Notes under the pieces: model-generated
The model's database searches: none
What the model saw: the letters and a program-made list of their open reading frames with translations, nothing else
Told to the model about the DNA's origin: nothing
Translations under genes and position numbers: made by a program
Assembly: GCA_022710975.1 (NCBI GenBank)
Contig: JAKLGA010000009.1
Coordinates: 117,547 to 181,546 of the forward strand
Reading direction: 5' to 3'
DNA from: Myxococcota bacterium
Lineage (GTDB): Bacteria; Myxococcota; B64-G9
Length of the DNA stretch: 64,000 bases
Part shown: piece by piece, positions 16,667 to 60,650 of the stretch
Layout: each line of letters opens with the position of its first letter
Numbering within the stretch: position 1 is the stretch's first letter

Positions 16667-17713
16667 CTACTGGCAATCGGCCGGGCACCGCGTCGCGTTC
16701 TCGCCCTTCTTCGTGTTGCACACGCCGTCGCCGCAGCAGGCGCCCTTGCGCACGCAGTCCGCGGCGCAGGCGGCGCAGGTCTCGCCGCCGGTGCACACGC
16801 CGTTGCCGCACACCTCGCCCGTGGGCTCGCAGTCGGGGTCGGCGCCCGGGGCGCAGGCCGCGTTGCACACGCCGTTCGCGGAGCAGTCCGGGGCCGGGGT
16901 GTTGCCGGTGAAGGCGTTGATGTAGCTCTCGAAGGTGTCCGCGCGGCTGCTCACGCCGTAGTCCAGGCAGGCCGCGTCGCCGTAGCTGGTCATGCCGCCC
17001 ACGTACACGGTGCCGTTGCGGCTGACGAAGGCCGGGCCGCCCGAGTCGCCGGAGCAGGGGCCGCCCTCGGACAGGGGCTGGTAGTAGTAGAGCCGGTCGG
17101 TGCTCAGCAGGTGGTCCAGGGTGCCCACCACGTGCAGCTTGTCGCCGAAGGCGTACTGGGAACCGCTCTCGACCGTGCCGAAGCCGGCGAAGTCGAGCGC
17201 CAGGTGGCCTTCGTCCGCGGCGGTGAAGCCCAGGCTCTGGGGCAGGGCCGGGACCGGGCTGGCCACGTTCGCGGGCACCGCGCTGGTCAGGCGGGCGAGG
17301 GCGATGTCGTTGGCCATGGTGGTCGAGCTGTAGCCCGGGTGCACCGCGATCGCGGACACCATGTAGAAGTCGCTGTAGCTCAGGGTGCCGGCGTTGTACT
17401 CGCGGATCGAGCTCTGGCCCAGGTAGATGGCCAGGCCCGACGCGCGGGTGCCCTTGAGGCAGTGGGCCGCGGTCAGCACCACGTTCGGGGTGATCAGGGT
17501 GCCGGAGCAGAAGGGGGAGATGCTGATGCCCTGCCTGGAGTTCTGGTGCAGGGAGACCACCGCGTCGTACTCACCGCCCGAGGCGGGCGAGCCGTTGTAG
17601 ATCGCGTTCTGGTGCTTGACCAGGTTGTTCTCGGTGGTGAGGCCGTCACCACAGGCCTGGAAGGCCACCGCACCCACGAGCGCCAGCGCGACCAGCATCA
17701 GATTCCGCCGCAT
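16667..17713 (-). CDS. Secreted trypsin-like serine protease (S1 family) with Cys-rich C-terminal extension
   Basis: Signal peptide. TAAHC (His), DIALARL (Asp), GDSGGP (Ser). C-terminal CxxGxC-rich tail. Confidence 0.85.
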   Translation of the reverse strand: MRRNLMLVALALVGAVAFQACGDGLTTENNLVKHQNAIYNGSPASGGEYDAVVSLHQNSRQGISISPFCSGTLITPNVVLTAAHCLKGTRASGLAIYLGQSSIREYNAGTLSYSDFYMVSAIAVHPGYSSTTMANDIALARLTSAVPANVASPVPALPQSLGFTAADEGHLALDFAGFGTVESGSQYAFGDKLHVVGTLDHLLSTDRLYYYQPLSEGGPCSGDSGGPAFVSRNGTVYVGGMTSYGDAACLDYGVSSRADTFESYINAFTGNTPAPDCSANGVCNAACAPGADPDCEPTGEVCGNGVCTGGETCAACAADCVRKGACCGDGVCNTKKGENATRCPADCQ

Positions 17714-18047
17714 GAGACTCTCCTCCGTTCCGACCGTTTTCGAACTGTCCGACCCTAGACTTACCTTTTCCCGAAATCCAGAATTTTCTTGCCCCTGGTG
17801 CAGGGCGTCAATAGCCTACGGATACACGCCGTCACTTCAAGCCTCATGCCAGCCCCAGGCGCCCCGGCCAAGATCTCAATCCACTGAATTCATAGAGTAA
17901 TTTGCAGTGTAGGATGTTGTGCTCCGGGGTGATCCTGTAGCCTGAAATTGATCCTTCGAACGCTGGTGTTCTCTTATGGTTCTGAATTTACTATTGTTTA
18001 TTTCTTGTAGCCCGGTTTTCAAAACGGGGACGGAGTTGCTTTCAGAG

Positions 18048-29215: not shown

Positions 29216-31764
29216 GCCGCCCGCGCGCGGCCCTGGCCGCCTGCCTGGTCAGCCTGGGCCTGGCGCTGTCCGCCGCGGCCTACGACGTGGAGACCGTGCA
29301 GACCTCCGGGGACTCCGCCAACCGCATCGATCTGGTCATCCTGGGGGACGGCTACAGGGTCGAGGACCAGGCCAAGCTGACGAGCGACGTGCAGTCCTTC
29401 CTCACGCGCTTCTGGCAGCAGACCCCCTACGCGGAGTACCGCAACTTCTTCAACGTGAAGCTCATCCACGTCATCTCGAACGAGAACGGGGCGGACAACG
29501 GCTCGTACGGCGCGGTGCGCGACACGGCCCTGGGCGCCTACTACAACTGCTACAACATCGATCGCCTGATCTGCCTCGACACCTGGGCCGTGTACCAGGC
29601 GGCCAACGCGGACGCGCCCGAGTGGGACTTCCTGTTCGTGATGGTGAACGATCCCAAATACGGGGGCTCCGGGGGCTCGATCTCGGTCTTCTCCGTGCAC
29701 GCCCTGGCTGGAGACATCGCCATCCACGAGTTCGGGCACTCGTTCGGCGGGCTGGCCGACGAGTACGAGGACGCCTACCCGGGCTACCCGGGCTGCGGCT
29801 CGGACTGCCCGGAGCCCAACGTGACCACCCGGACGGTGCGCGAGGAGGTCAAGTGGAACCCGTGGATCGACGCGGCCACGCCGGTTCCCACGCCCGAGAC
29901 CGGGACCTACTGGGACGCGGTGGGGGTGTTCGAGGGAGCCCGCTACCAGACCACGGGTGTCTTCCGCCCGAAGCAGGCCTGCTTCATGCGCCAGTACGGA
30001 GTCCCGTTCTGTGAGGTGTGCGAGGAGGCCCTGGTGCTGTCGGTCTACCAGCAGGTCTCGCCGCTCGACAGCGCCTCCCCGGCCGGCCCGGTCAGCCTCG
30101 GGAGCTGCGACCTGGCCAGCTTCGAGGTCGCCTACCCGCGGCCGGTGCCGGACACCGTGGAGGTCACCTGGCGCGTGGACGGCCAGGTCGTCCAGACGGG
30201 TGGCGCGGGGTTCGAGCTGGACGCCTCCGGGCTGTCGATCGGCGCCCATCAGCTCGAGGCCGAGATCGCCGATCTGACTCCGCTGGTGCGAACCGACCCC
30301 TCGTCGCTCCTGGTGGAGCGCCAGATCTGGACGGTCCAGGTGACCGGGACGCCGGTCTGCCTCATCGGCGGGGAGTGCATCCCCGATGGCACGCTGAACC
30401 CCGCCAACCCCTGCGAGATCTGCCAGGCGGCGAGCCAGCCCGGCGCCTGGAGCCCGCTCTCCGGGGTGGCCTGCGGCGACGGCCTCTACTGCAACGGCGC
30501 GGAGGCATGCCAGGCCGGCGCCTGCCAGGCCGGCGCGGCGCCCTGCCAGGACGACGGTCTGGCCTGCACGCTCACCTGCGACGAGGCCGGGCAGCGCTGC
30601 AACCTGCCCCAGGCAGGCTGGTGCGCCATCGCCGGGGTGTGCAGGACGGCGGGCGAGGCCGAGCCCGGCAACCCCTGCCGCACCTGCCAGCCGGGCGTGG
30701 ATCCCTCGGCCTGGGTCCCCGACGACAGCGCCACCTGCGGCGACGGGGAGTTCTGCGACGGCCCGGAGACCTGCCAGGGCGGCGTCTGCCAGGCCGGCGC
30801 GGCGCCCTGCCAGGACGACGGCCTGGCCTGCACGGACACCTGCGACGAGGCCGGGCAGCGCTGCGACGTGCCCCAGGCGGGCTGGTGTGCCATCGCCGGG
30901 GTGTGCGCGACCGCCGGGGAGGCCGAGCCCGGGAACCCCTGCCGGACCTGCCAGCCCGGGCTGGACCCGCTGGCCTGGACGGCGGACGATGGCCGGGCCT
31001 GCGAGGACGGCCTCTACTGCAACGGCGCGGAGACCTGCCTGGCCGGCGCGTGCCAGGCCGGCGCGGCGCCCTGCCAGGACGACGGCCTGGCCTGCACGGA
31101 CACCTGCGACGAGGCCGGGCAGCGCTGCGACGTGCCCCAGGCGGGCTGGTGCGCCATCGTCGGGGTGTGCGCGACCGCCGGGGAGGCCGAGCCCGGGAAC
31201 CCCTGCCGGACCTGCCAGCCCGGGCTGGACCCGCTCGCCTGGAGCCCGGACGACACGGCGGGCTGCGACGACGCGCGGCCCTGCACGACCAGCGACCATT
31301 GCCAGGCGGGCGCCTGCGTGGGCCAGCTCAGCCCGGGCTGCTGCACCGTGGCGGCCGACTGCGACGACGGGCTCGCCTGCACCCAGGACGCGTGCGACGC
31401 GGGCCAGAGCGCTTGCTCCAGCTCGCTGTCGGCCGGGGCCTGCCTGGTGGACGGCGTCTGCGCCCTCGCGGGAGAGGCCTCGCCGGGCAACGCCTGCCTG
31501 ACCTGTCAGCCCGGCACGGCGCCGCGGGCCTGGACGTCGGCCGAGGGCGCGGCCTGCGACGATGGCGACCCGTGCACCGCGGGGGGCGCCTGCCTGGCGG
31601 GCGCCTGCGCGCCGGGTGAGCGCCTGTGCGACCCGAGTTGCCCCTGCGAGGAGCCCGCCATGAAGGGCGGCTGTGGGTGCGGGGCGGGGACGGGCCAGGC
31701 GCCGGGCGCCCTGCTGTCCGTGCTGCTCGGGTGGCTGTGGGTGCGGCGCCGGCCGCGGGCGTGA
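29212..31764 (+). CDS. M64-family (IgA-peptidase-like) zinc metallopeptidase with three 88-aa cysteine-rich tandem repeats and MYXO-CTERM
   Basis: M64 hallmark IAIHEFGHSFGGLADEY. Three near-identical Cys-rich repeats. C-terminus GGCGCGAGTGQAPGALLSVLLGWLWVRRRPRA. Confidence 0.75.
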   Translation: MSRPRAALAACLVSLGLALSAAAYDVETVQTSGDSANRIDLVILGDGYRVEDQAKLTSDVQSFLTRFWQQTPYAEYRNFFNVKLIHVISNENGADNGSYGAVRDTALGAYYNCYNIDRLICLDTWAVYQAANADAPEWDFLFVMVNDPKYGGSGGSISVFSVHALAGDIAIHEFGHSFGGLADEYEDAYPGYPGCGSDCPEPNVTTRTVREEVKWNPWIDAATPVPTPETGTYWDAVGVFEGARYQTTGVFRPKQACFMRQYGVPFCEVCEEALVLSVYQQVSPLDSASPAGPVSLGSCDLASFEVAYPRPVPDTVEVTWRVDGQVVQTGGAGFELDASGLSIGAHQLEAEIADLTPLVRTDPSSLLVERQIWTVQVTGTPVCLIGGECIPDGTLNPANPCEICQAASQPGAWSPLSGVACGDGLYCNGAEACQAGACQAGAAPCQDDGLACTLTCDEAGQRCNLPQAGWCAIAGVCRTAGEAEPGNPCRTCQPGVDPSAWVPDDSATCGDGEFCDGPETCQGGVCQAGAAPCQDDGLACTDTCDEAGQRCDVPQAGWCAIAGVCATAGEAEPGNPCRTCQPGLDPLAWTADDGRACEDGLYCNGAETCLAGACQAGAAPCQDDGLACTDTCDEAGQRCDVPQAGWCAIVGVCATAGEAEPGNPCRTCQPGLDPLAWSPDDTAGCDDARPCTTSDHCQAGACVGQLSPGCCTVAADCDDGLACTQDACDAGQSACSSSLSAGACLVDGVCALAGEASPGNACLTCQPGTAPRAWTSAEGAACDDGDPCTAGGACLAGACAPGERLCDPSCPCEEPAMKGGCGCGAGTGQAPGALLSVLLGWLWVRRRPRA
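30472..31263 (+). repeat. Three tandem 264-nt (88-aa) near-identical direct repeats inside the M64 gene
   Basis: Units begin at 30472, 30736 and 31000 (CGDG.. / CGDG.. / CEDG..), with >90% nucleotide identity. Confidence 0.8.
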
Positions 31765-48690: not shown

Positions 48691-48755
48691 GTGGCACCTC
48701 CTTGTCCGGCCCCGTATCTTGGGAGATCCGCGGGCCGGATGCAAGCGGACCGCGG

Positions 48756-48808
48756 CCGGGGCGTTGGCAGACCCGCCGTGTGTGAATCTCTCAGGGCAGC
48801 CTTCGAGG
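48756..48808. repeat. Intergenic repeat family A, copy 1 (CCGGGGCGTTGGCAG..CGTGTGTGAATCTCTCAGGGCAGCCTTCGAGG)
   Basis: About 50-nt element. Copies at 54500..54553 (about 85% identical) and 58017..58059 (5' two-thirds conserved). Confidence 0.6.
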
Positions 48809-48855
48809 AGTCCTGCCTCCAACTAGACACCGGCCACTCGCAACCAGCCACTGGC

Positions 48856-48938
48856 TTCTCGCCACCTCCTTCCTTTCCTTCACCCCGGGGAGGTACAATC
48901 GCGCAAGGCCTGACCCGGCACGCTCAGGAGGGATTCCG
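48856..48938 (+). promoter_or_regulatory. Conserved leader with candidate -10 TACAAT (48894..48899) 40 nt before ATG; duplicated at 52851..52933
   Basis: About 80 nt nearly identical between the two paralog leaders, including CACCTCCTTCYTTTCCTTC, GGAGGTACAATCGCG and RBS AGGAGGGA. Confidence 0.3.
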
Positions 48939-51707
48939 ATGGGGATCATGCGGTTCGCAACCCGCCTCCGCCCGATCTGCGCGATCCTCGGCCTGGCCCT
49001 GTGCCTGGGGGCCCTCCTCGCCTGCCCGGGTTGCGTCGACTACCAGGGGAACGTCCCCTGCGAGTCCGACTCCGACTGCGGCAGGGCGCAGGCCTGCGAC
49101 CTGACCCAGGGAATCTGCCGTCCCATGTCCTGCGTCCTGGCCTGCCAGGGCCGCGAGTGCGGGCCCGACGGCTGCGGCGGGACATGCGGCGCCTGCGCCG
49201 CGGGGGAGACCTGCAGCCAGGGCGGACAGTGCCTCGGCGCATGCTCGCCAGACTGCTCGGCCCGCGAGTGCGGGCCCGACGGCTGTGGCGGGAGCTGCGG
49301 CGCCTGCCCGGTGGGAGAAGTTTGCACCCCTGAGGGTATGTGCGGCGGCGACTACCCCTGCTGCGGAACCCGGGAGTGCGGGCCGGATCCGTGCATGGGT
49401 GTGTCGTGCGGCGCCTGCCTGCCGGGCGAGACATGCACCCCTGGGGGCATGTGCGAGGGCGACTACCCCTGCTGCGGGATCCGCGAGTGCGGGCCCGATC
49501 CGTGCGCGGGCGCCCCCTGCGGCACCTGCGGGATGGACGAGTGGTGCGACACGAGCGGCCAGTGCCAGGGCGTCTGCACCCCCGACTGCACCGGGAAGAG
49601 CTGTGGGGACGACGGCTGCGGCGGGAGCTGCGGCACGTGTGCGTACGATGAATGGTGCAGTGCGGCAAGCCAATGCAGGGCGGCCGCCCAGGTGGGGGAG
49701 GCCTGCCCCTTCGAGAGCATCAACCCGGACGCCGGGGTGTGCGCCGAGGGCTTGACCTGCCTGGGCCTTGCGCCCGAACCCTACAGCTCTCCGTGCTCGG
49801 CCGACGAGGACTGTCTGCTGTATCTCCAGGATTTCCATAACCCGGATTGTTCTGACGGTGGATGTGGGGGTTCCTTCTGCGTCGCCGATTGCGTGGCGGA
49901 GGACTGCGACTCAGGTTTCAGCCCACAAATGGTCGGGGGTCATTGCTACTGCATCCCGGCGAACGCAGGCCCGAACGACGGCCAGGTGGGCGACGCATGC
50001 TACTTCGATCCAGTCCATACCGAGGAGGGCGCCTGCGTCCCAGGCCTCGAGTGCTTTGGCATGGGGCCGTACTGGAACGAGATGCCCTGCACGGATGACT
50101 CCGACTGCTTGGCCTTCCTCCCTGCCTCCTACAACCCAGAGTGTGTCGCTGGCAGTTGCGGCGCGTCTCTCTGCGTCGGCCCTTGTGCCGCAGACGGCTC
50201 CTGCGCCGACGGCCTACAGCCGATTGTGATGGGCAGCGAGTGCTTCTGCATTCCCAGCGACCAGATCGGCACTGGCCAGCCCGGCGACCCCTGCCCCTTC
50301 GAGCAGGTCCATGCGGACGACGGGCCGTGCGCTCCGGACCTCGTGTGCCTGGGCAATGCCCAGGGCGCTGAAGCCTGCGCGACCGTCGCAGACTGCGTGA
50401 ACTTCGGCTACGACCAGGTCTACAACCCGGAGTGCGTCCAAGGCTTCTGCGGCTTCTCCTTCTGCGCCGGCCTCTGCGTGAACGGCGGCCACTGCGACCC
50501 CGGTTTCCTGCCGATCGAATCGGAGGGCACCTGCTACTGCATCCCGGACACCTCGGAGGCCACCGGTCAGGCCGGCGATCCCTGCCCCTTCGACCAGGTC
50601 AACCCGACCGCGACCGAGTGCGCTGTCGGCCTGACCTGTCTGGGGATCCTGCCGGATCCGAGCTCGACTCCCTGTCCCGCGGGCGACGCGGACTGTCTGG
50701 CTTTCTACGCGGCCGCCTGGAACCCCGACTGCGCAGTGGGCGGCTGCGGCGTGTCCTTCTGTTCGGCAACGTGCACCAACGGCGCCTGCCCCGCGGGCTT
50801 CGGGACCTATGACATCATGGACACCTGCTACTGCATCCCCCTCCAGCAGCCGTCCCCCTCCAGAATCGCCTACGTCACCAACCGGAGCGGCCGGTACGAG
50901 ATCTGGGTGATGACCGGGGACGGCCTCGGGCAGCGGCAGCTCACCTTCAGCGCGCCCGACGAAACCCAGCGCATGGGCGCGCACTCGCCGCGCTGGTCGC
51001 CGGACGGCGCCCGGATCGCCTTCCTGTACGGCGCCGGGGACCCGACGCCGGACAGCACGCGGACCATGGTGATGAACGCCGACGGGACGGACCTGCGGGA
51101 GGTCACCCACGCGATCAGGACCTACTGGGAGCTGATTGCCTGGAGCCTGGACGGGACCGCGATCCTCCAGGAGCTCGACCTCTTCATGAACTCTCAGATC
51201 CTGGGCGTCGACCTGGCGACCGGCGCGACCCGGGTGGTCCTGGACGACACCCCGGACGGCTACCTCATCGCGGTCTCCCCGGACGTCAACCCGGTGGACG
51301 CCACGCTCGCGTACATCGCCTACAACACCGGCGGCGACTGGGGCGGCTTGCGCCTCCGCGCCATGGACGGCGGCGCCGAGACGACCCTCCTCGGCGCCGG
51401 GGTCGGGGTCGCCTCGCCGAGGTGGTCGCCGACCGGCGAGGAGATCGCGTACTCGCTCGAGGACTCCACGACAGGCAGCTTCAAGGTGATCGCCCGGGCT
51501 GGCGGGCCGCCCCGGACCATCACCTTGGACCCTCCGGTCGACACCAGGGCGGTCAGCGTGGACTGGACCGAGGACGGGTTCATCTTCAGGCGGTCCGCGG
51601 GCTCCGGCGGTGAGATCTGGGCCTGCGGGGCGGACGGCAGCGGGGCTCACGCGCTCCTCGCGGACGGCTGGAACAACCTGGAGCCGGACTGGAGGAGCGC
51701 GCCGTAG
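48939..51707 (+). CDS. Cysteine-rich repeat lipoprotein with C-terminal TolB-like (PD40/WD40-like) beta-propeller
   Basis: Lipobox LLAC. Repeated RECGPDGCGGSCGAC units. C-terminal segment with SPDG/SPRWSPDG PD40-like blades. Confidence 0.75.
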   Translation: MGIMRFATRLRPICAILGLALCLGALLACPGCVDYQGNVPCESDSDCGRAQACDLTQGICRPMSCVLACQGRECGPDGCGGTCGACAAGETCSQGGQCLGACSPDCSARECGPDGCGGSCGACPVGEVCTPEGMCGGDYPCCGTRECGPDPCMGVSCGACLPGETCTPGGMCEGDYPCCGIRECGPDPCAGAPCGTCGMDEWCDTSGQCQGVCTPDCTGKSCGDDGCGGSCGTCAYDEWCSAASQCRAAAQVGEACPFESINPDAGVCAEGLTCLGLAPEPYSSPCSADEDCLLYLQDFHNPDCSDGGCGGSFCVADCVAEDCDSGFSPQMVGGHCYCIPANAGPNDGQVGDACYFDPVHTEEGACVPGLECFGMGPYWNEMPCTDDSDCLAFLPASYNPECVAGSCGASLCVGPCAADGSCADGLQPIVMGSECFCIPSDQIGTGQPGDPCPFEQVHADDGPCAPDLVCLGNAQGAEACATVADCVNFGYDQVYNPECVQGFCGFSFCAGLCVNGGHCDPGFLPIESEGTCYCIPDTSEATGQAGDPCPFDQVNPTATECAVGLTCLGILPDPSSTPCPAGDADCLAFYAAAWNPDCAVGGCGVSFCSATCTNGACPAGFGTYDIMDTCYCIPLQQPSPSRIAYVTNRSGRYEIWVMTGDGLGQRQLTFSAPDETQRMGAHSPRWSPDGARIAFLYGAGDPTPDSTRTMVMNADGTDLREVTHAIRTYWELIAWSLDGTAILQELDLFMNSQILGVDLATGATRVVLDDTPDGYLIAVSPDVNPVDATLAYIAYNTGGDWGGLRLRAMDGGAETTLLGAGVGVASPRWSPTGEEIAYSLEDSTTGSFKVIARAGGPPRTITLDPPVDTRAVSVDWTEDGFIFRRSAGSGGEIWACGADGSGAHALLADGWNNLEPDWRSAP

Positions 51708-51794
51708 GTTCGCCGGGCCCCCCGGGGCCGTAGGTGCCAGCCGCCTGCAAGGCTGGGTGGTCCGCTGCACACGCAACCACCAGCGAGGGTCGCG

Positions 51795-52850: not shown

Positions 52851-52933
52851 CCACCCGCCACCTCCTTCTTTCCTTCCTCCCGTGGAGGTACAATCGCGGA
52901 AGGCCTGGCCCGGCGCTCTCAGGAGGGACTCCG
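52851..52933 (+). promoter_or_regulatory. Duplicate of conserved leader; candidate -10 TACAAT at 52889..52894
   Basis: Same motif order and same 40-nt spacing to the ATG as at 48856..48938. Confidence 0.3.
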
Positions 52934-54487
52934 ATGGGGATCACGCGGTTCGCAACCCGCTCTCGTCCGGTCCGCGCGACCCTCGGACTGGCCCTGTGCC
53001 TGGGGGCCGTCCTCGCCTGCCCGGGCTGCGTCGACTACCAGGGGACCGTCCCCTGCGAGTCCGACTCCGACTGCGGCAGGGCGCAGGTCTGCGACCTGAC
53101 CCAGGGGATCTGCCGTCCCATGTCCTGCATCCAGGCCTGCCAGGACCGCGAGTGCGGGCCCGACGGCTGCGGCGGGAGCTGCGGCGCCTGCGCCGCGGGG
53201 GAGACCTGCAGCCAGGGCGGACAGTGCCTCGGCGCATGCTCGCCCGACTGCTCGGCCCGCGAGTGCGGGCCCGACGGCTGCGGCGGGAGCTGCGGCACCT
53301 GCCCGGCAGGAGAAGCTTGCACCCCTGTGGGCGTGTGCGGCGGCGACTACCCCTGCTGCGAAACCCGGGAGTGCGGGCCGGATCCGTGCATGGGTGTGTC
53401 GTGCGGCGCCTGCCTGCCGGGCGAGACATGCACCCCAGCGGGCATGTGCGAGGGCGAAGCCCCCTGCTGCGGAAACCGGGAGTGCGGGCCGGATCCGTGC
53501 GCGGGTGTTTCGTGCGGTGAATGCATGGCGGGCATGCCATGCACCCCATCTGGCATTTGCATGGGCGATGCCCCCTGCTGCGAAAACCGGGAGTGCGGGC
53601 CGGATCCGTGCCTGGGACTGTCCTGCGGCACCTGCGGGATGGACGAGTGGTGCGACGCGAACGGCCGGTGCCAGGGCGTCTGCACCCCCGACTGCACCGG
53701 CCGCCAGTGCGGGGACGACGGCTGCGGCGGGAGCTGCGGCACCTGCGCGTACGATGAATGGTGCAACGACCTCGGCATCTGCGTCTGGGAATGCCAGCCC
53801 GACTGCACCGGCAAGGAGTGCGGGCCCGACGGCTGCGGCGGGAGCTGCGGCACCTGCGCCCCGATGCAGGTGTGCGACGCGACCGCCCGGTGCGTGCTCC
53901 CGGGCAACCAGCAGGCCGGCGAGCCCTGCGACTTCGACACGGTGAACGTGGGCGCCGGGGAGTGCATGACCGGCCTGGTCTGCCTGGGTGTCCTTCCGGA
54001 CCCCACCATAGGGGCCTGCACCACCGACGGCGACTGCGTCAGTTTCCTGGACCCCCTCTGGAACCCGGACTGCGTGGGCGGCTACTGCGGCGCCTCCTTC
54101 TGCTCGCCGGAGTGCGAGAACGGCGCCTGCGACCCTGGCTTCCAGCCGCAGTACATCAGCGGCCTGTGCATGTGCATCCCTTACTGGCAGGACCCTGACC
54201 CGGGCCTGCCCGGCGACCCCTGCGCGTGGGACCAGGTGAACTCCGAGGCGGGCAACTGCGAGGCCAGCCTGCTCTGCCTGGGTATCCCCCCGGACCCGCT
54301 CGAGACGCCCTGTCCCGCGGGGGACGGGGACTGTCTGGCTTTCTACGCGGCCGCCTGGAACCCCGACTGCGTGGACGGCGGCTGCGGCGTGTCCTTCTGC
54401 TCGGAATCGTGCACCAACGGCGGCTGCATTACTGGCTTCGAGCCGATCGACATTTCGGGCGACTGCTACTGCGTCCCCCTCCCGTAG
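52934..54487 (+). CDS. Cysteine-rich repeat lipoprotein, paralog of 48939..51707 lacking the beta-propeller
   Basis: First ~720 nt >95% identical to paralog 1. One extra Cys-repeat unit. RBS AGGAGGG. Confidence 0.75.
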   Translation: MGITRFATRSRPVRATLGLALCLGAVLACPGCVDYQGTVPCESDSDCGRAQVCDLTQGICRPMSCIQACQDRECGPDGCGGSCGACAAGETCSQGGQCLGACSPDCSARECGPDGCGGSCGTCPAGEACTPVGVCGGDYPCCETRECGPDPCMGVSCGACLPGETCTPAGMCEGEAPCCGNRECGPDPCAGVSCGECMAGMPCTPSGICMGDAPCCENRECGPDPCLGLSCGTCGMDEWCDANGRCQGVCTPDCTGRQCGDDGCGGSCGTCAYDEWCNDLGICVWECQPDCTGKECGPDGCGGSCGTCAPMQVCDATARCVLPGNQQAGEPCDFDTVNVGAGECMTGLVCLGVLPDPTIGACTTDGDCVSFLDPLWNPDCVGGYCGASFCSPECENGACDPGFQPQYISGLCMCIPYWQDPDPGLPGDPCAWDQVNSEAGNCEASLLCLGIPPDPLETPCPAGDGDCLAFYAAAWNPDCVDGGCGVSFCSESCTNGGCITGFEPIDISGDCYCVPLP

Positions 54488-54499
54488 CCGTCCCCTGCA

Positions 54500-54553
54500 G
54501 GCAGGACGTTGGCATACCCTGCGTGTGCGAATCTCTCAGGGCAGCCTTCGAGG
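54500..54553. repeat. Intergenic repeat family A, copy 2
   Basis: CAGGACGTTGGCATACCCTGCGTGTGCGAATCTCTCAGGGCAGCCTTCGAGG. Confidence 0.6.
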
Positions 54554-54632
54554 GGTTTGCCGATACCCGACCCACGATCTATCGAGGAACCCGGCTACCC
54601 GCGGCCACCCGCGGCACTCGGGTGGCACCTGC

Positions 54633-54674
54633 GAAGGCCTCTTCTTCGCGGCGTCATGCGGAAGATCCGGTCCC
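54633..54674. repeat. Intergenic repeat family B, copy 1 (GAAGGCCTCTTCTTCGCGGCGTCATGCGGAAGATCCGGTCCC)
   Basis: 41 of 42 nt identical to 57950..57991. Confidence 0.7.
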
Positions 54675-54779
54675 ACGAGAGGTACCGGCTGCCTGAAGAT
54701 GTGCAGATTGCGCTGCGGGTCTGAACGCGCGAAAATTGTCCAGGGGAGAGCATCGTCCCTGTGAGAATGGAGGTTACCC

Positions 54780-55517
54780 ATGCCAGCGATCCGTGGGGCC
54801 TTGGCGATGGGGCTCGCCCTCTCTTTGCTCTCATTCTCCGGCTGCGGTTAGGGTGCTTCCCTCTCGGAGATTCGCATCGAGCTCCAGGACCACGGCAGCG
54901 CCTCCTGCCTGGGCGCGGCCCACCTGATGATCCGCGCCCAGAACTCCCACGACACCCTGGAGCAACACGAGTACGGCAAGTTCTTCCAGACGAACCCCCT
55001 GGCCTGCGCGGGCGGCACGATCCTGGTCTCGGGCCTCGAACCAGACCACGAGTTCCGGGTCTCGGTCAGCCTGTGGGACTCGACCACCGACATGGATGGC
55101 CTGCTGGCCGAGGGCTCGACCTCCGCCTTCGAGCTCGAGCCGGGCGCCTCCCTACCCATCGCGGTAGACCTGTCGCGCACCGACGCTCGTCCGGGCACGA
55201 TCAGCTTCGCGTCCCCGCCGGCCGACTGGTCCCAGGCCGCCGCGGCAGAGGCGTTTCGCTTCACCATCACCGCGGACGGGGAGACCGTGCCGCAGCGCTC
55301 TGGCCACCTCGACGTCCAGCCCGAGCGCCTCACGGATCCGTTCCCGCTGATCATCTCCGACCTGCCCTTGACAGCCGAGCTTACCGAGTACCACGTGGTG
55401 GTGGAGGCACTGGGCAGGAGCACGCAGGGTCTCGACCCGCCCGTGCTCCACTCCTGGACCGCCACCGCTTTCCTGGGCGGCCCGGCGGTCAACCCTGGAG
55501 ATTCGATCCTCAAGTAG
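54780..55517 (+). pseudogene. Lipoprotein gene interrupted by an in-frame TAG immediately after the lipobox (signal peptide 54780..54851; body 54852..55517)
   Basis: RBS GGAGG 6 nt before ATG 54780 encodes MPAIRGALAMGLALSLLSFSGCG, then TAG at 54849..54851. The same frame continues open for 222 codons to 55517. Confidence 0.45.
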
Positions 55518-55657
55518 GAGAGGGCCCAGCCCGCGAGTGCCAGCCGCCTGCTATCGCCGCGCTACCATCCGAAGTACAATGAGGGAGCCAGACGGCAGGC
55601 GAACGAGAGGGCGTGCGTGGAGGTCGGGATCCTGGAGATGCGGAGGAGGCGAATTTG

Positions 55658-56323
55658 GTGAGGGCTACAGTCTTGGCTCTTGTGATTCTTCTGGCCACGG
55701 GCTGTGCCGAGCAGGTTGCGGGCGTCGATGGTGGCACAAATGGAAACGGCTACTGTTCTTATCGGCTTGCCATCGATGAACTGCTACTATTTTCGGACTA
55801 TGTAGCTCTTGGCAGACCGGTAGAAGCAAGGAAAGTGCTTTTCGAGGCGTTAGCTACTGCAGTTATCCCGCCTGAGGACTTCTTTTTTTGCACTATCTTC
55901 AGTGTGGCAACCATTGACACGCTCAACGTGGCTGTAAGACAAGACGACAATGAAGAGGCAACACCGCCTTGGGGCGATGAATTGGCGACCTACCATGATG
56001 AATGCATGCGAATTGCAGAATTTGAAAGAGGAACACAAAATCTACTTGCATATCCGACCGCACTCTTTTTTGCGCAGAACAACATATACCTGAATCGGCC
56101 ATATCTTATTGAGATGCTGGAGGTCGTGGACTCGAAGGTAAAAGTTGGACCCTCGAATACCAGATGCGGTGTAGCGCTGGAAATCGAGGTGACTGAGCTG
56201 TTCGATGCCGTTGCGGTGGGCGACTTTTCTGCGCTGTTGGAGGCCGATACGTATCCTTGTCGGCAGAATGATGGTGCGGCCATTGATGACCCTGACGGCT
56301 CCGATGGATCCGAAGGGAAGTAG
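55658..56323 (+). CDS. Lipoprotein, hypothetical (low-GC island gene)
   Basis: RBS GGAGGAGG then TTG 55655/GTG 55658. Signal + lipobox LATGC. About 47% GC. Confidence 0.55.
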   Translation: MRATVLALVILLATGCAEQVAGVDGGTNGNGYCSYRLAIDELLLFSDYVALGRPVEARKVLFEALATAVIPPEDFFFCTIFSVATIDTLNVAVRQDDNEEATPPWGDELATYHDECMRIAEFERGTQNLLAYPTALFFAQNNIYLNRPYLIEMLEVVDSKVKVGPSNTRCGVALEIEVTELFDAVAVGDFSALLEADTYPCRQNDGAAIDDPDGSDGSEGK

Positions 56324-56424
56324 AGAGACATCCCCCGCCGAAAGGACCCCCGCAGGCAGGTGCCAGCCACACTAGATGGGCATCCGGGAATCGGGGCTGA
56401 ATGACGAGATTGGAGTTCGAGGTC

Positions 56425-57339
56425 ATGAAATCGATCATCCATGCTGGGTGGTATGCGGCGCTTGCGATACCCTTGCTGATGGTTGGCGCAGAATCCTGTA
56501 CTGGAGGAGCAGGTCAAGGGCGCTACTCTGGCGGCATGGGAGGGGCGAAGATCGTGGGGAGAGGATTGGAGTTCGATTGCCCTGAGTATCAATATGGCGA
56601 CTGGGAGAACCCCCAGAAATTCTATCTATTTCCGAGAATCATAAAGAGTGGCGAGAGAGTAAAAATCTATCTGGCAGTGGAAGATGATGTGTTGATTAGA
56701 GAAAAGAATGCGAATGGAGAAGCAGAATTTTCTGTAGAAGTACTGCATGAGAAGGCATCACTCACCAGGGTGGGCTTTGCTGATGACCTGGGCAGCTTGG
56801 CGGGAACCATGTATTGGGCCCCGGTATTTCTGGGAACGGTTGATGTGGAGACCGATGTGCAGGGGTGGGTGGATGTGAACTATTTCAATGGGAAACAGGT
56901 GATAGGTACCAGGAGCATTCTGGTGACAGATGGCACCAAGGAGGAGTCTTCCTGGACATCAAAGGTGGTCTGTCGACTCGATTGTGGAAAATCTGTGCAG
57001 TTGGACCACGTCCTTGTCTACGTCGACCGCACCCCTGTCGAGTATTTCACCAAGATCGTGGCAGCCACGGGTGGCACCCTCGGCAGGATAGTATCTGTTG
57101 GATTCGGACAAGAGCCGTATGGGAATTGCTATCCTAGTTGCTATTTTCCATACCAGGGCGTTGCGTTGGACATCATTTTGCCTGAAGCGGGATTTCACAC
57201 CGCCTGTGGAGCGCTAGATTCAGTGGAGAAGTTGGGAATTCCTGGAGTGAAGGTCGCAATGCCTACTAAAGAATTCGGCACTGTCGATTTGAACCCGCAA
57301 TGCAGAACGATGGAGTTTCCCGTTGGCGACTGCCACTAG
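56425..57339 (+). CDS. Secreted/lipoprotein-like hypothetical protein (low-GC island gene)
   Basis: ATG 56425 preceded by GGAG. Signal peptide ending VGAESC. No known motifs. Confidence 0.55.
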   Translation: MKSIIHAGWYAALAIPLLMVGAESCTGGAGQGRYSGGMGGAKIVGRGLEFDCPEYQYGDWENPQKFYLFPRIIKSGERVKIYLAVEDDVLIREKNANGEAEFSVEVLHEKASLTRVGFADDLGSLAGTMYWAPVFLGTVDVETDVQGWVDVNYFNGKQVIGTRSILVTDGTKEESSWTSKVVCRLDCGKSVQLDHVLVYVDRTPVEYFTKIVAATGGTLGRIVSVGFGQEPYGNCYPSCYFPYQGVALDIILPEAGFHTACGALDSVEKLGIPGVKVAMPTKEFGTVDLNPQCRTMEFPVGDCH

Positions 57340-57384
57340 TGGGCTGAGGAGAGAGGGCTGGCGCGGGGCGGCGGAGCAGGCAGC

Positions 57385-57729
57385 TCAGTGCAGGCGCGCG
57401 GGTGGCTCCTCCGCCTTGACCGCGTTCAGGTCCGCCTTGAGCTCGGAGATGTCGGCCTTGACGATGACCATGTCCGCCTTGAGGCCCGCCACGTCGGTCT
57501 TCAGCACGGACACGTCGGTCTTCAGCACGGACACGTCCTGCTTGAGGACCCGCACGTCGCCTGCCAGGTCGAGCACCGCGACCTCGAGCCGATCGAAGCG
57601 CGCGTCCTGCTGGTCGAAGCGCCTGTCGTGCCGGGCGAGGTGCTCGCCGTTCATCTGCACGCCTTCGGCCACGGCCTGGATGGAGGACTGGATGTTCTCC
57701 AGGAGAATGGCGACCTGATCCTGTTCCAT
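57385..57729 (-). CDS. Small coiled-coil protein with heptad tandem repeats (DVSVLKT x2, then variants)
   Basis: ATG 57729. RFDQQDARFDRLE followed by DVRVLKQ/DVSVLKT/DVSVLKT/DVAGLKA/DMVIVKA/DISELKA/DLNAVKA. Perfect 21-nt DNA duplication. Confidence 0.55.
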   Translation of the reverse strand: MEQDQVAILLENIQSSIQAVAEGVQMNGEHLARHDRRFDQQDARFDRLEVAVLDLAGDVRVLKQDVSVLKTDVSVLKTDVAGLKADMVIVKADISELKADLNAVKAEEPPARLH

Positions 57730-57917
57730 GGCGCCTCCAGGGTAGCGGGCCTCGCGGGTGGAATCAACCCTCGCGTGCCCTCCCACGGACGGCGTTCCCG
57801 AGCAAGAACAATGCTACGATGCTGGATCCACGAATCCGGGGGGTTACGTTGCCAGGCGGCCCTCGGCGCTGCGCGGGTGACCGGATTTCCCGGACACCGT
57901 GACCGGAAATCGGACAC

Positions 57918-57945
57918 ACGCGCCAGGTGCCAGCCACCCGGAGCC
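57918..57945. repeat. Intergenic repeat family C (ACGCGCCAGGTGCCAGCCACCCGGAGCC), copy 1
   Basis: 28 of 28 nt identical to 58831..58858. Core GTGCCAGCC also at 51733, 55537 and 56360. Confidence 0.7.
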
Positions 57946-57949
57946 CGGC

Positions 57950-57991
57950 GAAGGCCTCTTCTTCCCGGCGTCATGCGGAAGATCCGGTCCC
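57950..57991. repeat. Intergenic repeat family B, copy 2
   Basis: GAAGGCCTCTTCTTCCCGGCGTCATGCGGAAGATCCGGTCCC. Confidence 0.7.
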
Positions 57992-58016
57992 TTCCTGAGG
58001 TGCCACCCACCTGCAG

Positions 58017-58059
58017 CCGGGGCGTTGGCAGGCCGTCCGTGCGTGGATCGCCCAGGGCA
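58017..58059. repeat. Intergenic repeat family A, copy 3 (partial)
   Basis: CCGGGGCGTTGGCAGGCCGTCCGTGCGTGGATCGCCCAGGGCA. Confidence 0.5.
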
Positions 58060-58202
58060 TTTCATGGAGGCGAAGGACAGGCGGGAAGGGCAGGGGGCGA
58101 GGTGCCAGGCAGGTTCCAGCCCCCCTCCGGCCGGAACTTCAGGCCTCCGTGGTCCCGTCGCGCCACGCGCCGTCTCGTTTCATGGCGGATAACAATCACG
58201 AG

Positions 58203-58817
58203 CTAGTCAATGAAAAAGCACATTCTGCGCCCTCCCTGGACTGGGATGCAGGGAAGGCCGTAGGTCGCGTTTCCTGGATACTTGCAATCATCGCAGTCTG
58301 ATTGGTCTTCGCAAAGGTGCGAACAGAATGCTTGTGGGTTTTGTGGGTCACCATCGCAAAAAAGACCTTCTCCACAGGCTGACTGCTGTTGGTCAGTACA
58401 GGGTGTGCCACAGGTGCCTTCTCGTGAACCACATTCTGCCCCGAGAGCTATCTTCTCGCAGAACGACGGTTCACCAAGTTGGCTGACGCAGCACATAGGA
58501 CTTCCGTCATCTAGTATGTCCAAGCAGTCAGAATCGGCATCACATGGAATGGTACAAAGACCCATGGAGGGCCCAAAGAGGCCATACTTGCAGAATTGTG
58601 ATTCACAGTCTTCGTTTTTGGCGCATAAGTCGCCAATACCCGCAGCGTTTCCATCGTTGCCGTCTTGACCATCCATCCCAGAATCAGGAGGCGATTCCAG
58701 ATCGCTGCATCCAAGGAACAGCCATTGAATGGCAACTATTGAGACAAGCAGAGAGACTCTTCGAACTACAATATAGGGTTCGAGGAAGGTCGATCTGCTG
58801 AGACTCTTGAACCCCAT
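58203..58817 (-). CDS. Cysteine-rich lipoprotein, hypothetical (low-GC island gene)
   Basis: ATG 58817. Signal + lipobox FLGC. 24 Cys in the mature part. Confidence 0.55.
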   Translation of the reverse strand: MGFKSLSRSTFLEPYIVVRRVSLLVSIVAIQWLFLGCSDLESPPDSGMDGQDGNDGNAAGIGDLCAKNEDCESQFCKYGLFGPSMGLCTIPCDADSDCLDILDDGSPMCCVSQLGEPSFCEKIALGAECGSREGTCGTPCTDQQQSACGEGLFCDGDPQNPQAFCSHLCEDQSDCDDCKYPGNATYGLPCIPVQGGRRMCFFID

Positions 58818-58830
58818 GGCTACCTCGCCC

Positions 58831-58858
58831 ACGCGCCAGGTGCCAGCCACCCGGAGCC
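58831..58858. repeat. Intergenic repeat family C, copy 2
   Basis: Identical 28-mer, 20 nt upstream (gene sense: inverted) of ATG 58817. Confidence 0.7.
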
Positions 58859-58878
58859 GGGCTCCTCGAGGCTCGCGC

Positions 58879-59508
58879 CTAGCGCGGCTTCCGGCGCAGC
58901 AGCCCCAGCCCGATCACCAGCCCCAGCACCAGCCCGCCGCCCTGGCCCGCGGTGGAGTCGGAGCAGTCCTCCGTGTCGTCGCAGGTGTGCCAGTAGCCCG
59001 CCTCGATGGTGTGAAAATGGCAGGACTGGTCGAGCGCCTGCGCGAGGACGAACTCCACCGGGGCGGAGTAGAGGTCGCAATCCACCTCCGTCCCGTCCAC
59101 CCTGAAGCTCGCCAGGAGGCAACCGTCACTCTTGCTGATCACGAAGACCCCGCGCTCGCCCACGGCCAGGGGAGTGCAGCGGTTGCACCCGGATTCGCAC
59201 GGCGTCCCTGCACCCCAGGAGAACTCCACCGGGAAGTCCACGGCCGGGCACTCGAGCCCGCCATCGCAGTAGATCGGCGTCTGGAGGAGGCTGATGCTCA
59301 GCCCGTCCGTCTGGACCGCCGTCACCTCGGCCTGGGCCACCATGGAATTCTCCTGCCATTCGAAGCAGCAGGGCGCGCCGGGGCACATCGCGGCCGCGCT
59401 GGAGGGAAGGACGACCAGCAGCAGCGCGGACAGGAGCCCGGCCAGCGCGACACCCTCGGCCGCGCGCGCCGCGCGGCAGACCCCTCGAGGAAATCCCTTC
59501 TCCCGCAT
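58879..59508 (-). CDS. Secreted cysteine-containing protein with C-terminal hydrophobic + RRKPR anchor-like tail
   Basis: RBS GGAGGT 7 nt before ATG 59508. Signal peptide. C-terminus CSDSTAGQGGGLVLGLVIGLGLLRRKPR. Confidence 0.5.
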   Translation of the reverse strand: MREKGFPRGVCRAARAAEGVALAGLLSALLLVVLPSSAAAMCPGAPCCFEWQENSMVAQAEVTAVQTDGLSISLLQTPIYCDGGLECPAVDFPVEFSWGAGTPCESGCNRCTPLAVGERGVFVISKSDGCLLASFRVDGTEVDCDLYSAPVEFVLAQALDQSCHFHTIEAGYWHTCDDTEDCSDSTAGQGGGLVLGLVIGLGLLRRKPR

Positions 59509-59736
59509 GTCCCCGACCTCCGTGAAGATGATTCCCGACCAGGGGAGGCTACCAGATAGAACGCCTGAAACCAAGGGGCGCGCCCGACCCGCAGGCGCCA
59601 GCCGTCGCGGGGGCGGACCCATGCGTCCGCCCCTGTGGGACTCCGGACCGATTCTCTGTAGGGGCAGACCCAACTTTCTGCCCCGGCGGCTGCACCAGCA
59701 GGCAGGGTTTCGGGAGGGCGCAGGGCACAGTCACGG

Positions 59737-60099
59737 TCAGGGCGTCCGCGGGCCCAGCACGTGGGGGAGCTGACGGTAGGTGATCGGGTCGAGCAGCAGG
59801 AGCGCGCGGAAGACCCGCCGGTGCGGCTCGGGCGATGCGGGGTGTGGCTCCAGGAAGAGCGCGGCGAGGAGATCGCGCCAGCGCAGCAGCTCGCGCCGCA
59901 GGCCGGGCCGCGGCTGGACCTCCACGGTGAGATCGGTGAGCGCGAGCGCGCGCTCGTAGCACGCGCGGAGCCGCTCGCCGCCGTCCTGGGCCAGGGCCCG
60001 CGAGGCCCGGTGGAGCTCGTTGCCGATCATCAGCAGCTGCTCGCCGAGACTGAACTCGGCCCAGCGCGCGGGCGACAGGCCTGCGTGCTGTCCCGCCAT
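59737..60099 (-). CDS. Hypothetical protein, downstream partner of overlapping pair
   Basis: ATG 60099 shares a nucleotide with the stop of the upstream gene (TGATG). Confidence 0.4.
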   Translation of the reverse strand: MAGQHAGLSPARWAEFSLGEQLLMIGNELHRASRALAQDGGERLRACYERALALTDLTVEVQPRPGLRRELLRWRDLLAALFLEPHPASPEPHRRVFRALLLLDPITYRQLPHVLGPRTP

Positions 60100-60467
60100 C
60101 AGAGGTCCTCCCCCTGGCCGATCAGGGCGAAGGTGATCTCCCGGATCGCGGCCCGGATGGCGGGATCCGTGATCTCCATGGAGGGGTTGCCGCGGCTGGG
60201 GCGGATGTTGATGAGCGCGGTGTGCTCGAGGCAGCCGTCGGGCCCCTGACCCGGGTAGTAGTTCGCGCCCCACAGGTCCGCCTGCTGGCTGCCGTCCTCG
60301 AGCAGCAGCTTTTCGGCGTCGGCGTGCAGCTCGCCGCCCACGGCCACCACCCGGCGGCGGACGTCGACCACCAGCTTGACCATGTCGCCGAAGTAGAGCC
60401 GCGTGAGGCGCGCGAGCTCGCTCCGGGCGATCGGCTGCGTGACGATCAGGATGCTGTCGGCCACCAC
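60099..60467 (-). CDS. Small conserved hypothetical protein (resembles DUF5674-type; tentative)
   Basis: MVADSILIVTQPIARSELARLTRLYFGDMVKLVVDVRRR...GGELHADAEKLLLEDGSQQADLWGANYYPG pattern. Confidence 0.5.
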   Translation of the reverse strand: MVADSILIVTQPIARSELARLTRLYFGDMVKLVVDVRRRVVAVGGELHADAEKLLLEDGSQQADLWGANYYPGQGPDGCLEHTALINIRPSRGNPSMEITDPAIRAAIREITFALIGQGEDL

Positions 60468-60650
60468 GACCTCCCGAGAGCTGCCGACAGGCTCGCACCG
60501 CGGTGGCGAAGATGCAAGCAGGGAGGTCGACGGCGGGTTGCCGCCCCGGTCCGCAGCCGGGGCCTCGTGGGTGAGGGGCTGCCGCCCATGTGCGGGGCGG
60601 AAGGGTCACGGCCCTTGCCCGGGAGCGGGCAGCCCGGGTAAGCTCCCCCC

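Follow-up and report, generated by a model that had tools for sequence, protein, structure and literature searches.

We analyzed a 64,000-nucleotide (nt) stretch of the genome of an uncultured Myxococcota bacterium (lineage B64-G9; assembly GCA_022710975.1, contig JAKLGA010000009.1, positions 117,547 to 181,546 of the forward strand), hereafter called the window, and in it a run of small genes, B to I, at positions 54488-60650. This run is a mosaic islet: among native genes lie three xenologous ones (C, D, and F), each coding for an exported protein. The three belong to a pool of cassettes with about 50% GC, and their borders are marked by a short repeat. On balance, we favor the view that the cassettes are exchanged and code for partner proteins. 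The likely source of the three genes is a pool of effector or immunity cassettes that can be exchanged.

Base composition separates the three genes from their surroundings. The window has a mean GC content of 72.0% (standard deviation 5.7% in 400-nt windows), and 400-nt windows below 60% GC start only at 17601-17901, 55501-57101, and 58101-58501. The first group is an AT-rich spacer. Two patches of about 51% GC, at about 55650-57340 (C and D) and about 58195-58828 (F), have edges at which the GC content shifts abruptly, over a few tens of bases. GC content at third codon positions (GC3) is of foreign type in C (0.51), D (0.56), and F (0.49) and host-like in B, E, G, H, and I (0.89-0.97, or 0.87-0.98 once flanking genes are included). 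An earlier prediction made from the letters of the sequence (the original prediction) had reported the GC drop, which the 400-nt profile and the GC3 values bear out, and had treated the region as one foreign unit, which is correct for C, D, and F and incorrect for the five host-like genes. The AT-rich spacer (17714-18047, about 330 nt, about 45-50% GC) lies upstream of a gene for a trypsin-like lipoprotein (16667-17713, minus strand). It is the only stretch below 60% GC outside the C/D/F region and holds no convincing open reading frame (ORF).

The locus is 99.99-100% identical in five independent assemblies (one from JGI, two from ENA, and two from Logan), including the patch junctions and an in-frame TAG codon in B. 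The exact D sequence is present on a 319-kb contig annotated as a Myxococcota metagenome-assembled genome (MAG). The rest of the window is ordinary chromosome, with genes for Ser/Thr kinases, a sigma-54 activator, TonB receptors, and an aminotransferase, among others. Insertion sequences, Rhs genes, subtilase genes, and tRNA genes were not found in the window, and all phage, plasmid, and viral-contig searches were without match. No recombinase was identified among the called genes within 10 kb on either side or among 20 large ORFs scanned in the first 42 kb.

Each of the three low-GC genes has very few relatives. Gene C (55655-56323, plus strand) has a TTG start and codes for a lipoprotein with the signal MVRATVLALVILLATGC and the lipobox LLATGC. 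Among 1.84 billion representatives, we found only two relatives, at 37-40% identity. All three members of this family (C, P0017, and P0018) end in DGSDGS(E/G/D)GK, which is possibly a processing or sorting tag. Gene D (56425-57339, plus strand; alternative start at 56401) codes for an exported protein of 304 amino acids with an atypical lipobox, A-E-S-C; a search of 5.8 billion proteins gave a single further cluster (58% identity). Conservation is high across the C-terminal half of D, and the N-terminal half varies. The ratio of nonsynonymous to synonymous substitution rates (dN/dS) is 0.29 for the whole gene and 0.12-0.22 for the C-terminal half. Gene F (58203-58817, minus strand) codes for a Cys-rich lipoprotein of 204 amino acids with the lipobox LFLGC. 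In the same set of 5.8 billion proteins it has one relative, on metagenome contig L023, with 80% amino acid and 88.7% nucleotide identity and a dN/dS of 0.42. D and F are under purifying selection. Because of these dN/dS values and the identities of the homologs, we conclude that C, D, and F are real genes. F was missed by the JGI annotation, and the NCBI locus tags from 18295 (D) to 18305 (G) leave one tag (18300) for E and F together. F showed no significant similarity to its Cys-rich neighbors A and G. AlphaFold2 (AF2) models of C (predicted local distance difference test score, pLDDT, 43; three sequences) and D (pLDDT 38; two sequences) were unusable.

The two F alleles (58203-58817 in the window and 169-783 in L023) are mosaic. 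Codons 101-150 (150 nt) are identical, and codons 1-50 have a dS of 0.65, as if the alleles had recently recombined. L023 and one copy of the window locus were assembled from one ENA sample, with similar coverage (4.76 and 4.98, respectively); L023 could be a second copy within the same genome. A 20-nt exact match was also observed between the left edge of the first patch (55650-55669, spanning the TTG start of C) and L023 36-55, inside a gene X that precedes the F homolog. The flanks of this match are unrelated and the reading frames differ, and it may be a relic of rearrangement.

We searched the proteins of B to I against Pfam, NCBIfam, PADLOC, PHROGs, and PDB sequences. No match was found for B, C, D, F, G, or H, and E gave only weak matches of the coiled-coil type. 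The sole family match in the region was that of I to DUF5674 (9e-32). No protein of the region has an enzymatic domain, as predicted and in line with the Pfam and NCBIfam results, and no protein in the window has a toxin domain, SitA homology, or an adjacent immunity gene. The toxin-like C-terminal domains and cognate immunity genes that the original prediction had suggested looking for did not turn up in Pfam, NCBIfam, or PDB searches, and no small co-oriented gene follows C, D, or F.

All homologs of C, D, and F are on short contigs (at most 14.5 kb) from a few metagenome samples, which we refer to as sister contigs. Host-type genes on these contigs have GC3 values of 0.87-0.95 and cassette genes have values of 0.42-0.57. 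Because the low-GC genes are embedded in high-GC DNA, the sister contigs do not come from a low-GC organism. The cassette-like character ascribed to the low-GC genes in the original prediction found support here, in that the few relatives sit in other low-GC patches within high-GC DNA and have the same spacer repeat. Its description of clustered, foreign, polymorphic-looking lipoprotein genes suits C, D, and F, which are foreign, near-orphan, cassette-like, and exported or lipoproteins, with mosaic alleles in the case of F; five of the eight genes are native. C, D, and F belong to a small pool of cassettes of about 50% GC, members of which are combined differently in the high-GC DNA of apparently related organisms in a few metagenomes.

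On contigs L006 to L010, a gene for a 968-amino-acid Peptidase_S8 protein (subtilase) ends within the D homolog, with 20 nt in common; after the D homolog come an orphan YD-shell fragment and a small membrane protein. Upstream of D, the window retains a stub of about 30-55 nt (56371-56424, plus strand; clearly alignable at 56396-56424), the degenerate 3' end of a Peptidase_S8 gene, with a frameshift and a lost stop codon. A stretch of 35 nt is 88.6% identical to L006 2966-3000, which encodes IDEIGVSGHEIGHP followed by a stop, the C-terminus of the 968-amino-acid subtilase. D has come, or has been left behind, without the subtilase gene, its partner elsewhere, of which only the stub remains. 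In L024, positions 963-1084 are 100% identical to L006 20-141 over 122 nt, including the first 34 nt of the subtilase gene. This stretch is joined, inverted, to the spacer downstream of a C homolog, forming an alternative junction in the sister population.

L050 carries the end of an Rhs core (TIGR03696, 1e-18); within this gene, GC3 is 0.89 for the core and drops to 0.46 for the tip. HELGH occurs in the tip, and a low-GC gene for a 218-amino-acid lipoprotein follows it; this patch is a genuine polymorphic-toxin module. L044 carries a G homolog (40% identical) beside a different low-GC block of about 4.8 kb. No recombinase was found on the sister contigs, and tblastn of their Rhs and YD sequences against the window gave no match.

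Borders of the low-GC patches coincide with copies of a short intergenic repeat whose core is CCAGGTGCCAGCC. The stretch around F in which the window is homologous to L023 (58121-58827) has a core copy directly beside each end. The 76-nt high-GC tail of the spacer between E and F (58121-58196) travels with F: it is 89% identical to L023 844-918, and the homology ends at a degenerate core. Immediately past the core at 56358-56370 comes the start of the subtilase stub. In the window and in L044 alike, a core copy separates G from the low-GC block, and L044 has other low-GC genes in this slot. The same unit separates cassettes in L006 and L050 (one of them the Rhs tip with its lipoprotein gene) and abuts a cut ISL3 transposase gene in L044. 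The transposase ORF (L044 8711-9475; Pfam profile positions 24-193 of 240) is cut exactly at the start of the repeat unit. On the other strand, at L044 9251-11293, a gene of intermediate composition (GC3 0.67) codes for a 680-amino-acid Cys-rich protein whose last residues and stop (VQVPAD, then stop) are encoded by the repeat unit.

The core, in the form (C)CAGGTGCCAGCC, occurs at 51732, 55538, 56358, 57925, 57998 (a variant), and 58838, always on the plus strand and always between genes. The 13-mer core has 15 matches versus 4.5 expected, a number reached in 0 of 100 shuffles. Repeats had been predicted in every spacer. We found statistically solid copies in the spacers that follow A, B, C, E, and F; in the D-E and G-H spacers the only copies are degenerate, each non-significant alone. 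One copy (GAGTGCCAGCCGCCTGC, 55531-55551, plus strand) lies 20 nt past the B stop and agrees at 15 of 15 bases with the copy at 51734-51748, which follows the upstream gene A'. Another (GCAGGTGCCAGCCAC, 56353-56370, plus strand) lies between C and D, directly 5' of the subtilase stub.

Three families of longer repeats (47, 33, and 60 nt) are also statistically solid. Reading along the plus strand, the spacer between A and B (54488-54779) has a 60-nt copy (54497-54556), an inverted core variant (GGGTGGCACCT, 54620-54630), and a 47-nt copy (54628-54674). The spacer between E and F (57730-58202) has a 33-nt copy (57917-57949), a 47-nt copy (57945-57991), a core variant (57998-58010), a 60-nt copy (58013-58072), and a degenerate core (58100-58123). 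The second 33-nt copy (CACGCGCCAGGTGCCAGCCACCCGGAGCC, 58830-58862, plus strand) lies 28 nt from the G stop and 3 nt past the end of the L023 homology. The two 47-nt copies are 96% identical and the two 33-nt copies 97% identical. The 60-nt family has members at 48752, 54497, and 58013; the copy at 54497-54556 is 85-91% identical to that at 48752-48811, upstream of A'. In the spacers of sister loci the core has extended similarity, as part of a unit some 30 nt long (CCTCGTCCAGGTGCCAGCCGACTGATGGC) and of an inter-cassette element some 300 nt long. The 33-nt repeat of the window can be read as a form of the 30-nt unit with a 19-nt deletion. Tandem arrays of the unit occur in single spacers of L067 (3310-3500, 8 or more units repeating about every 30 nt) and L130 (2720-2905, 7 copies).

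The palindrome in the unit is weak (TGCCA..TGGCA). Folding of the spacers, as RNA for the window and as DNA for one window spacer and the sister loci, gave z-scores that were not significant, and neither the window nor the main sister loci had an Rfam match; we rejected a structured RNA or attC site on these grounds. We also rejected a sigma-54 promoter in GGCTGGCACCTGG: in all copies, GG and GC lie 1-2 nt too close together. For a coding origin of the repeat (the 'GWHL' or 'VQVPAD'-stop frames), the frame was inconsistent among the window copies. Scanning a genome collection that lacks the source MAG with a 21-mer of the 47-nt repeat gave chance matches only (Streptococcus and others). A metagenome scan with the degenerate core gave mostly single chance matches, and true members occurred only in series Ga0116143, Ga0209096, and Ga0116160.

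In the model that we favor, the repeat-rich spacers would act as substrates for recombination, and cassettes would be gained, swapped, and truncated at them without a dedicated recombinase encoded nearby. C, D, and F would be accessory envelope proteins, most likely orphan partners or immunity-type proteins of secreted effectors, and D would be the partner of a subtilase. Analogies to the Rhs-tip and lipoprotein module with the same spacer, and to the orphan immunity arrays of rAID-1 clusters, hint at such a partner or immunity role. A more ambitious version of the model seems unlikely to us. In that version, cassettes are exchanged independently of a recombinase or by one acting in trans, the 30-nt unit marks the junctions, the cassettes of about 50% GC code for effectors, immunity proteins, and further envelope proteins, C, D, and F are orphan immunity-type proteins, and D belongs to a new subtilase-effector/immunity pair.

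Several observations weigh against our interpretation. C, D, and F have no family, defense, phage, or PDB match, the AF2 models of C and D are unusable, and no toxin gene adjoins any of the three in the window. To our knowledge, subtilases are not established as a class of antibacterial effectors, and D could be a substrate, chaperone, or inhibitor instead of an immunity protein. The sister contigs are short and taxonomically unlabeled; we infer their kinship to the host from GC3, the repeat, and the 40% identical G homolog. The repeat unit is also present in ordinary high-GC spacers without a low-GC gene (L140, L041, L130, and L067), so repeats at the patch borders could merely mark where non-coding DNA lies. 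The repeats are found in such spacers and in tandem arrays and are not restricted to loci of the island type.

The same evidence can be set against other explanations. C, D, and F might be ordinary lineage-specific orphans that share no role, remnants of old transfers (e.g., a decayed prophage or plasmid) beside unrelated repeats of the repetitive extragenic palindromic (REP) type. We give this scenario a minor but real chance. The repeat is found in ordinary spacers and tandem arrays too, B is probably a pseudogene, no function can be assigned to any gene, and no recombinase is nearby. Decaying remnants would nonetheless be hard to reconcile with purifying selection on D and F or with finding core copies where the F patch breaks off on either side and where the subtilase stub begins. 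Homologs are also present in further low-GC patches that have this spacer repeat, and no phage or plasmid match was obtained. We consider it quite improbable that the CCAGGTGCCAGCC unit is the site of a recombinase encoded elsewhere, as in a site-specific cassette system of the integron or rAID-1 type. Scans of the window and the sister contigs found no recombinase, the cassettes are not co-oriented, the unit also populates tandem arrays and ordinary spacers and has no stable hairpin (z-scores not significant), and the window and main sister loci gave no Rfam match. A site-specific system would, however, account for the same unit at cassette borders in the window, L006, L050, and L044, and for the copy in L044 that contributes the final codons and stop codon to an ORF and cuts the ISL3 transposase gene. 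Skewed GC content and repetitive spacers are hallmarks of rAID-1 clusters (10.1101/471110).

Kin-discrimination cargo, the role proposed in the original prediction, is very improbable in our judgment. SitA loci code for polymorphic lipoprotein toxins of myxobacteria (PMC5562445), and the genes studied here are likewise polymorphic and horizontally acquired, with good lipoboxes on C and F. However, among the billions of proteins searched, C, D, and F each had only one or two relatives, all metagenomic, with no Myxococcales genome represented. At 204-304 amino acids the proteins are small, no C-terminal toxin or nuclease domain was identified in them, and we found no small immunity gene after C, D, or F and no sitB-like gene. 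An assembly chimera, with low-GC reads of another organism joined into a high-GC contig, would explain why GC content changes abruptly within a few tens of bases. We dismiss it as practically excluded because five independent assemblies share identical junctions, and the repeats and the subtilase stub are located at those junctions.

The genes of native composition are interleaved with the foreign patches. B (54780-55517, plus strand, GC3 0.89) is a lipoprotein gene with the signal MPAIRGALAMGLALSLLSFSGC. The in-frame TAG (54849-54851), present in all five assemblies, sits two codons past the lipobox Cys. We interpret it as a recent nonsense mutation because the coding-type GC3 runs on through the stop, and B is probably a pseudogene. 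Annotation pipelines call only 54927-55517, a protein of 196 amino acids that lacks a signal. E (57385-57729, minus strand, GC3 0.93) codes for a coiled-coil protein of 114 amino acids with DVSVLKT heptads and no signal peptide. G (58879-59508, minus strand, GC3 0.91) codes for a secreted protein with a C-terminal Gly-rich segment, a transmembrane (TM) helix, and an RRKPR tail. H (59737-60099) and I (60099-60467), both of host composition and on the minus strand, are coupled by an ATGA overlap and probably lie outside the acquired patches. The eight genes and their features (lipoboxes of B, C, and F, heptads of E, Cys-rich F, the TM helix and RRKPR tail of G, and the H/I overlap) had been described accurately in the original prediction.

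The C-terminal tail of G (GGGLVLGLVIGLGLLRRKPR) had also been predicted to resemble a MYXO-CTERM signal. Such signals consist of a conserved Cys-containing motif, a TM helix, and an Arg-rich tail. The G tail is similar in general form only. Neither it nor the L044 homolog matched the MYXO-CTERM-related NCBIfam models at E<=1, including TIGR03901, which we take to be the MYXO-CTERM domain model.

Upstream of the islet, genes A' (48939-51707, 922 amino acids) and A (52934-54487, 517 amino acids) code for paralogous Cys-rich lipoproteins with 111-nt (37-amino-acid) CGPDGCGGSCGxC repeats. The two genes agree at 93% identity in the 5' region (48860-49510 and 52856-53505), and the region upstream of A' and the spacer upstream of B have a 60-nt repeat in common. 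Farther away, at 30369-31609, five tandem repeats of 264 nt (72-83% identical) lie in the coding region of a Cys-rich repeat protein; the 680-amino-acid L044 protein is 31-32% identical to these repeats.

The cassette genes of this locus form a small set that is real and was acquired horizontally, the repeats that flank them are real as well, and the locus is of a known kind of variable accessory locus. If our interpretation holds, this lineage keeps a shared pool of low-GC, exchangeable genes for envelope proteins or effector partners, marked by a specific spacer repeat. The logic of polymorphic toxins and orphan immunity genes would then extend to an unstudied branch of the Myxococcota, with three new protein families and a candidate subtilase-partner pair. 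The significance would grow if the repeat were a dedicated exchange site. If the interpretation fails, the locus represents a routine small-scale acquisition of orphan genes, and the main use of this analysis is to correct annotation (F missed by pipelines and B a pseudogene).

We compared the islet to known systems of exchangeable genes. The SitBAI loci of Myxococcus are cassettes of polymorphic lipoprotein toxins (PMC5562445). Common ground includes the myxobacterial phylum, lipoprotein signals, polymorphism, and horizontal transfer. C and F have a type II signal with a lipobox; that of B is interrupted, and D has the atypical AESC. The lipobox is the only defining feature of SitA that we found, and the locus lacks SitA homology, a toxin domain, sitI, sitB, and an Mx-alpha-like element. 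The rAID-1 clusters of Bacteroidales are arrays of acquired small genes, many of them orphan immunity genes, with skewed GC content and repetitive spacers (10.1101/471110). The islet likewise combines small acquired genes of skewed GC content with repetitive intergenic sequence. Its foreign genes differ in that there are only three, interleaved with native ones; only C and D are co-directional, and F is on the other strand, beyond the native gene E. No XerD-like recombinase was found among the called genes within 10 kb or the 20 large ORFs scanned in the first 42 kb, and no homology to known immunity families was seen in Pfam, NCBIfam, or PADLOC.

In integrons and clusters of attC sites lacking integrases (CALIN), an attC site (an imperfect palindrome with RYYYAAC/GTTRRRY cores) follows each co-oriented cassette, and intI is nearby in integrons. 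The islet differs in its mixed orientations, and we found no integrase, no significant spacer fold, no Rfam match, and, on reading the spacers, no GTTRRRY cores. REP elements and bacterial interspersed mosaic elements (BIME) have traits in common with the repeat unit, which is short, lineage-specific, and strictly intergenic, forms clusters and tandem arrays, and marks rearrangement breakpoints. The unit departs from them in its weak palindrome (TGCCA..TGGCA) and the lack of a predicted stable fold.

Orphan modules of Rhs and polymorphic toxins consist of a GC-rich core, an AT-rich exchangeable tip with an immunity gene, and displaced pairs of toxin fragments and immunity genes. The window has no Rhs or YD sequence, and a core fragment with the PxxxxDPxGL feature was seen only in L050. 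The partner of D would be a subtilase instead of an Rhs tip, the window spacers are non-coding repeats and not conserved pieces of a toxin core, and C and F have no partner stub, the sole trace being the putative 20-nt relic. The resemblance lies in the low-GC exchangeable genes in a high-GC host and in the 3' remnant of an upstream partner that is kept with D, as in displaced toxin-fragment/immunity pairs. A true Rhs core with a low-GC tip and a lipoprotein gene is present, with the same repeat, on sister contig L050.

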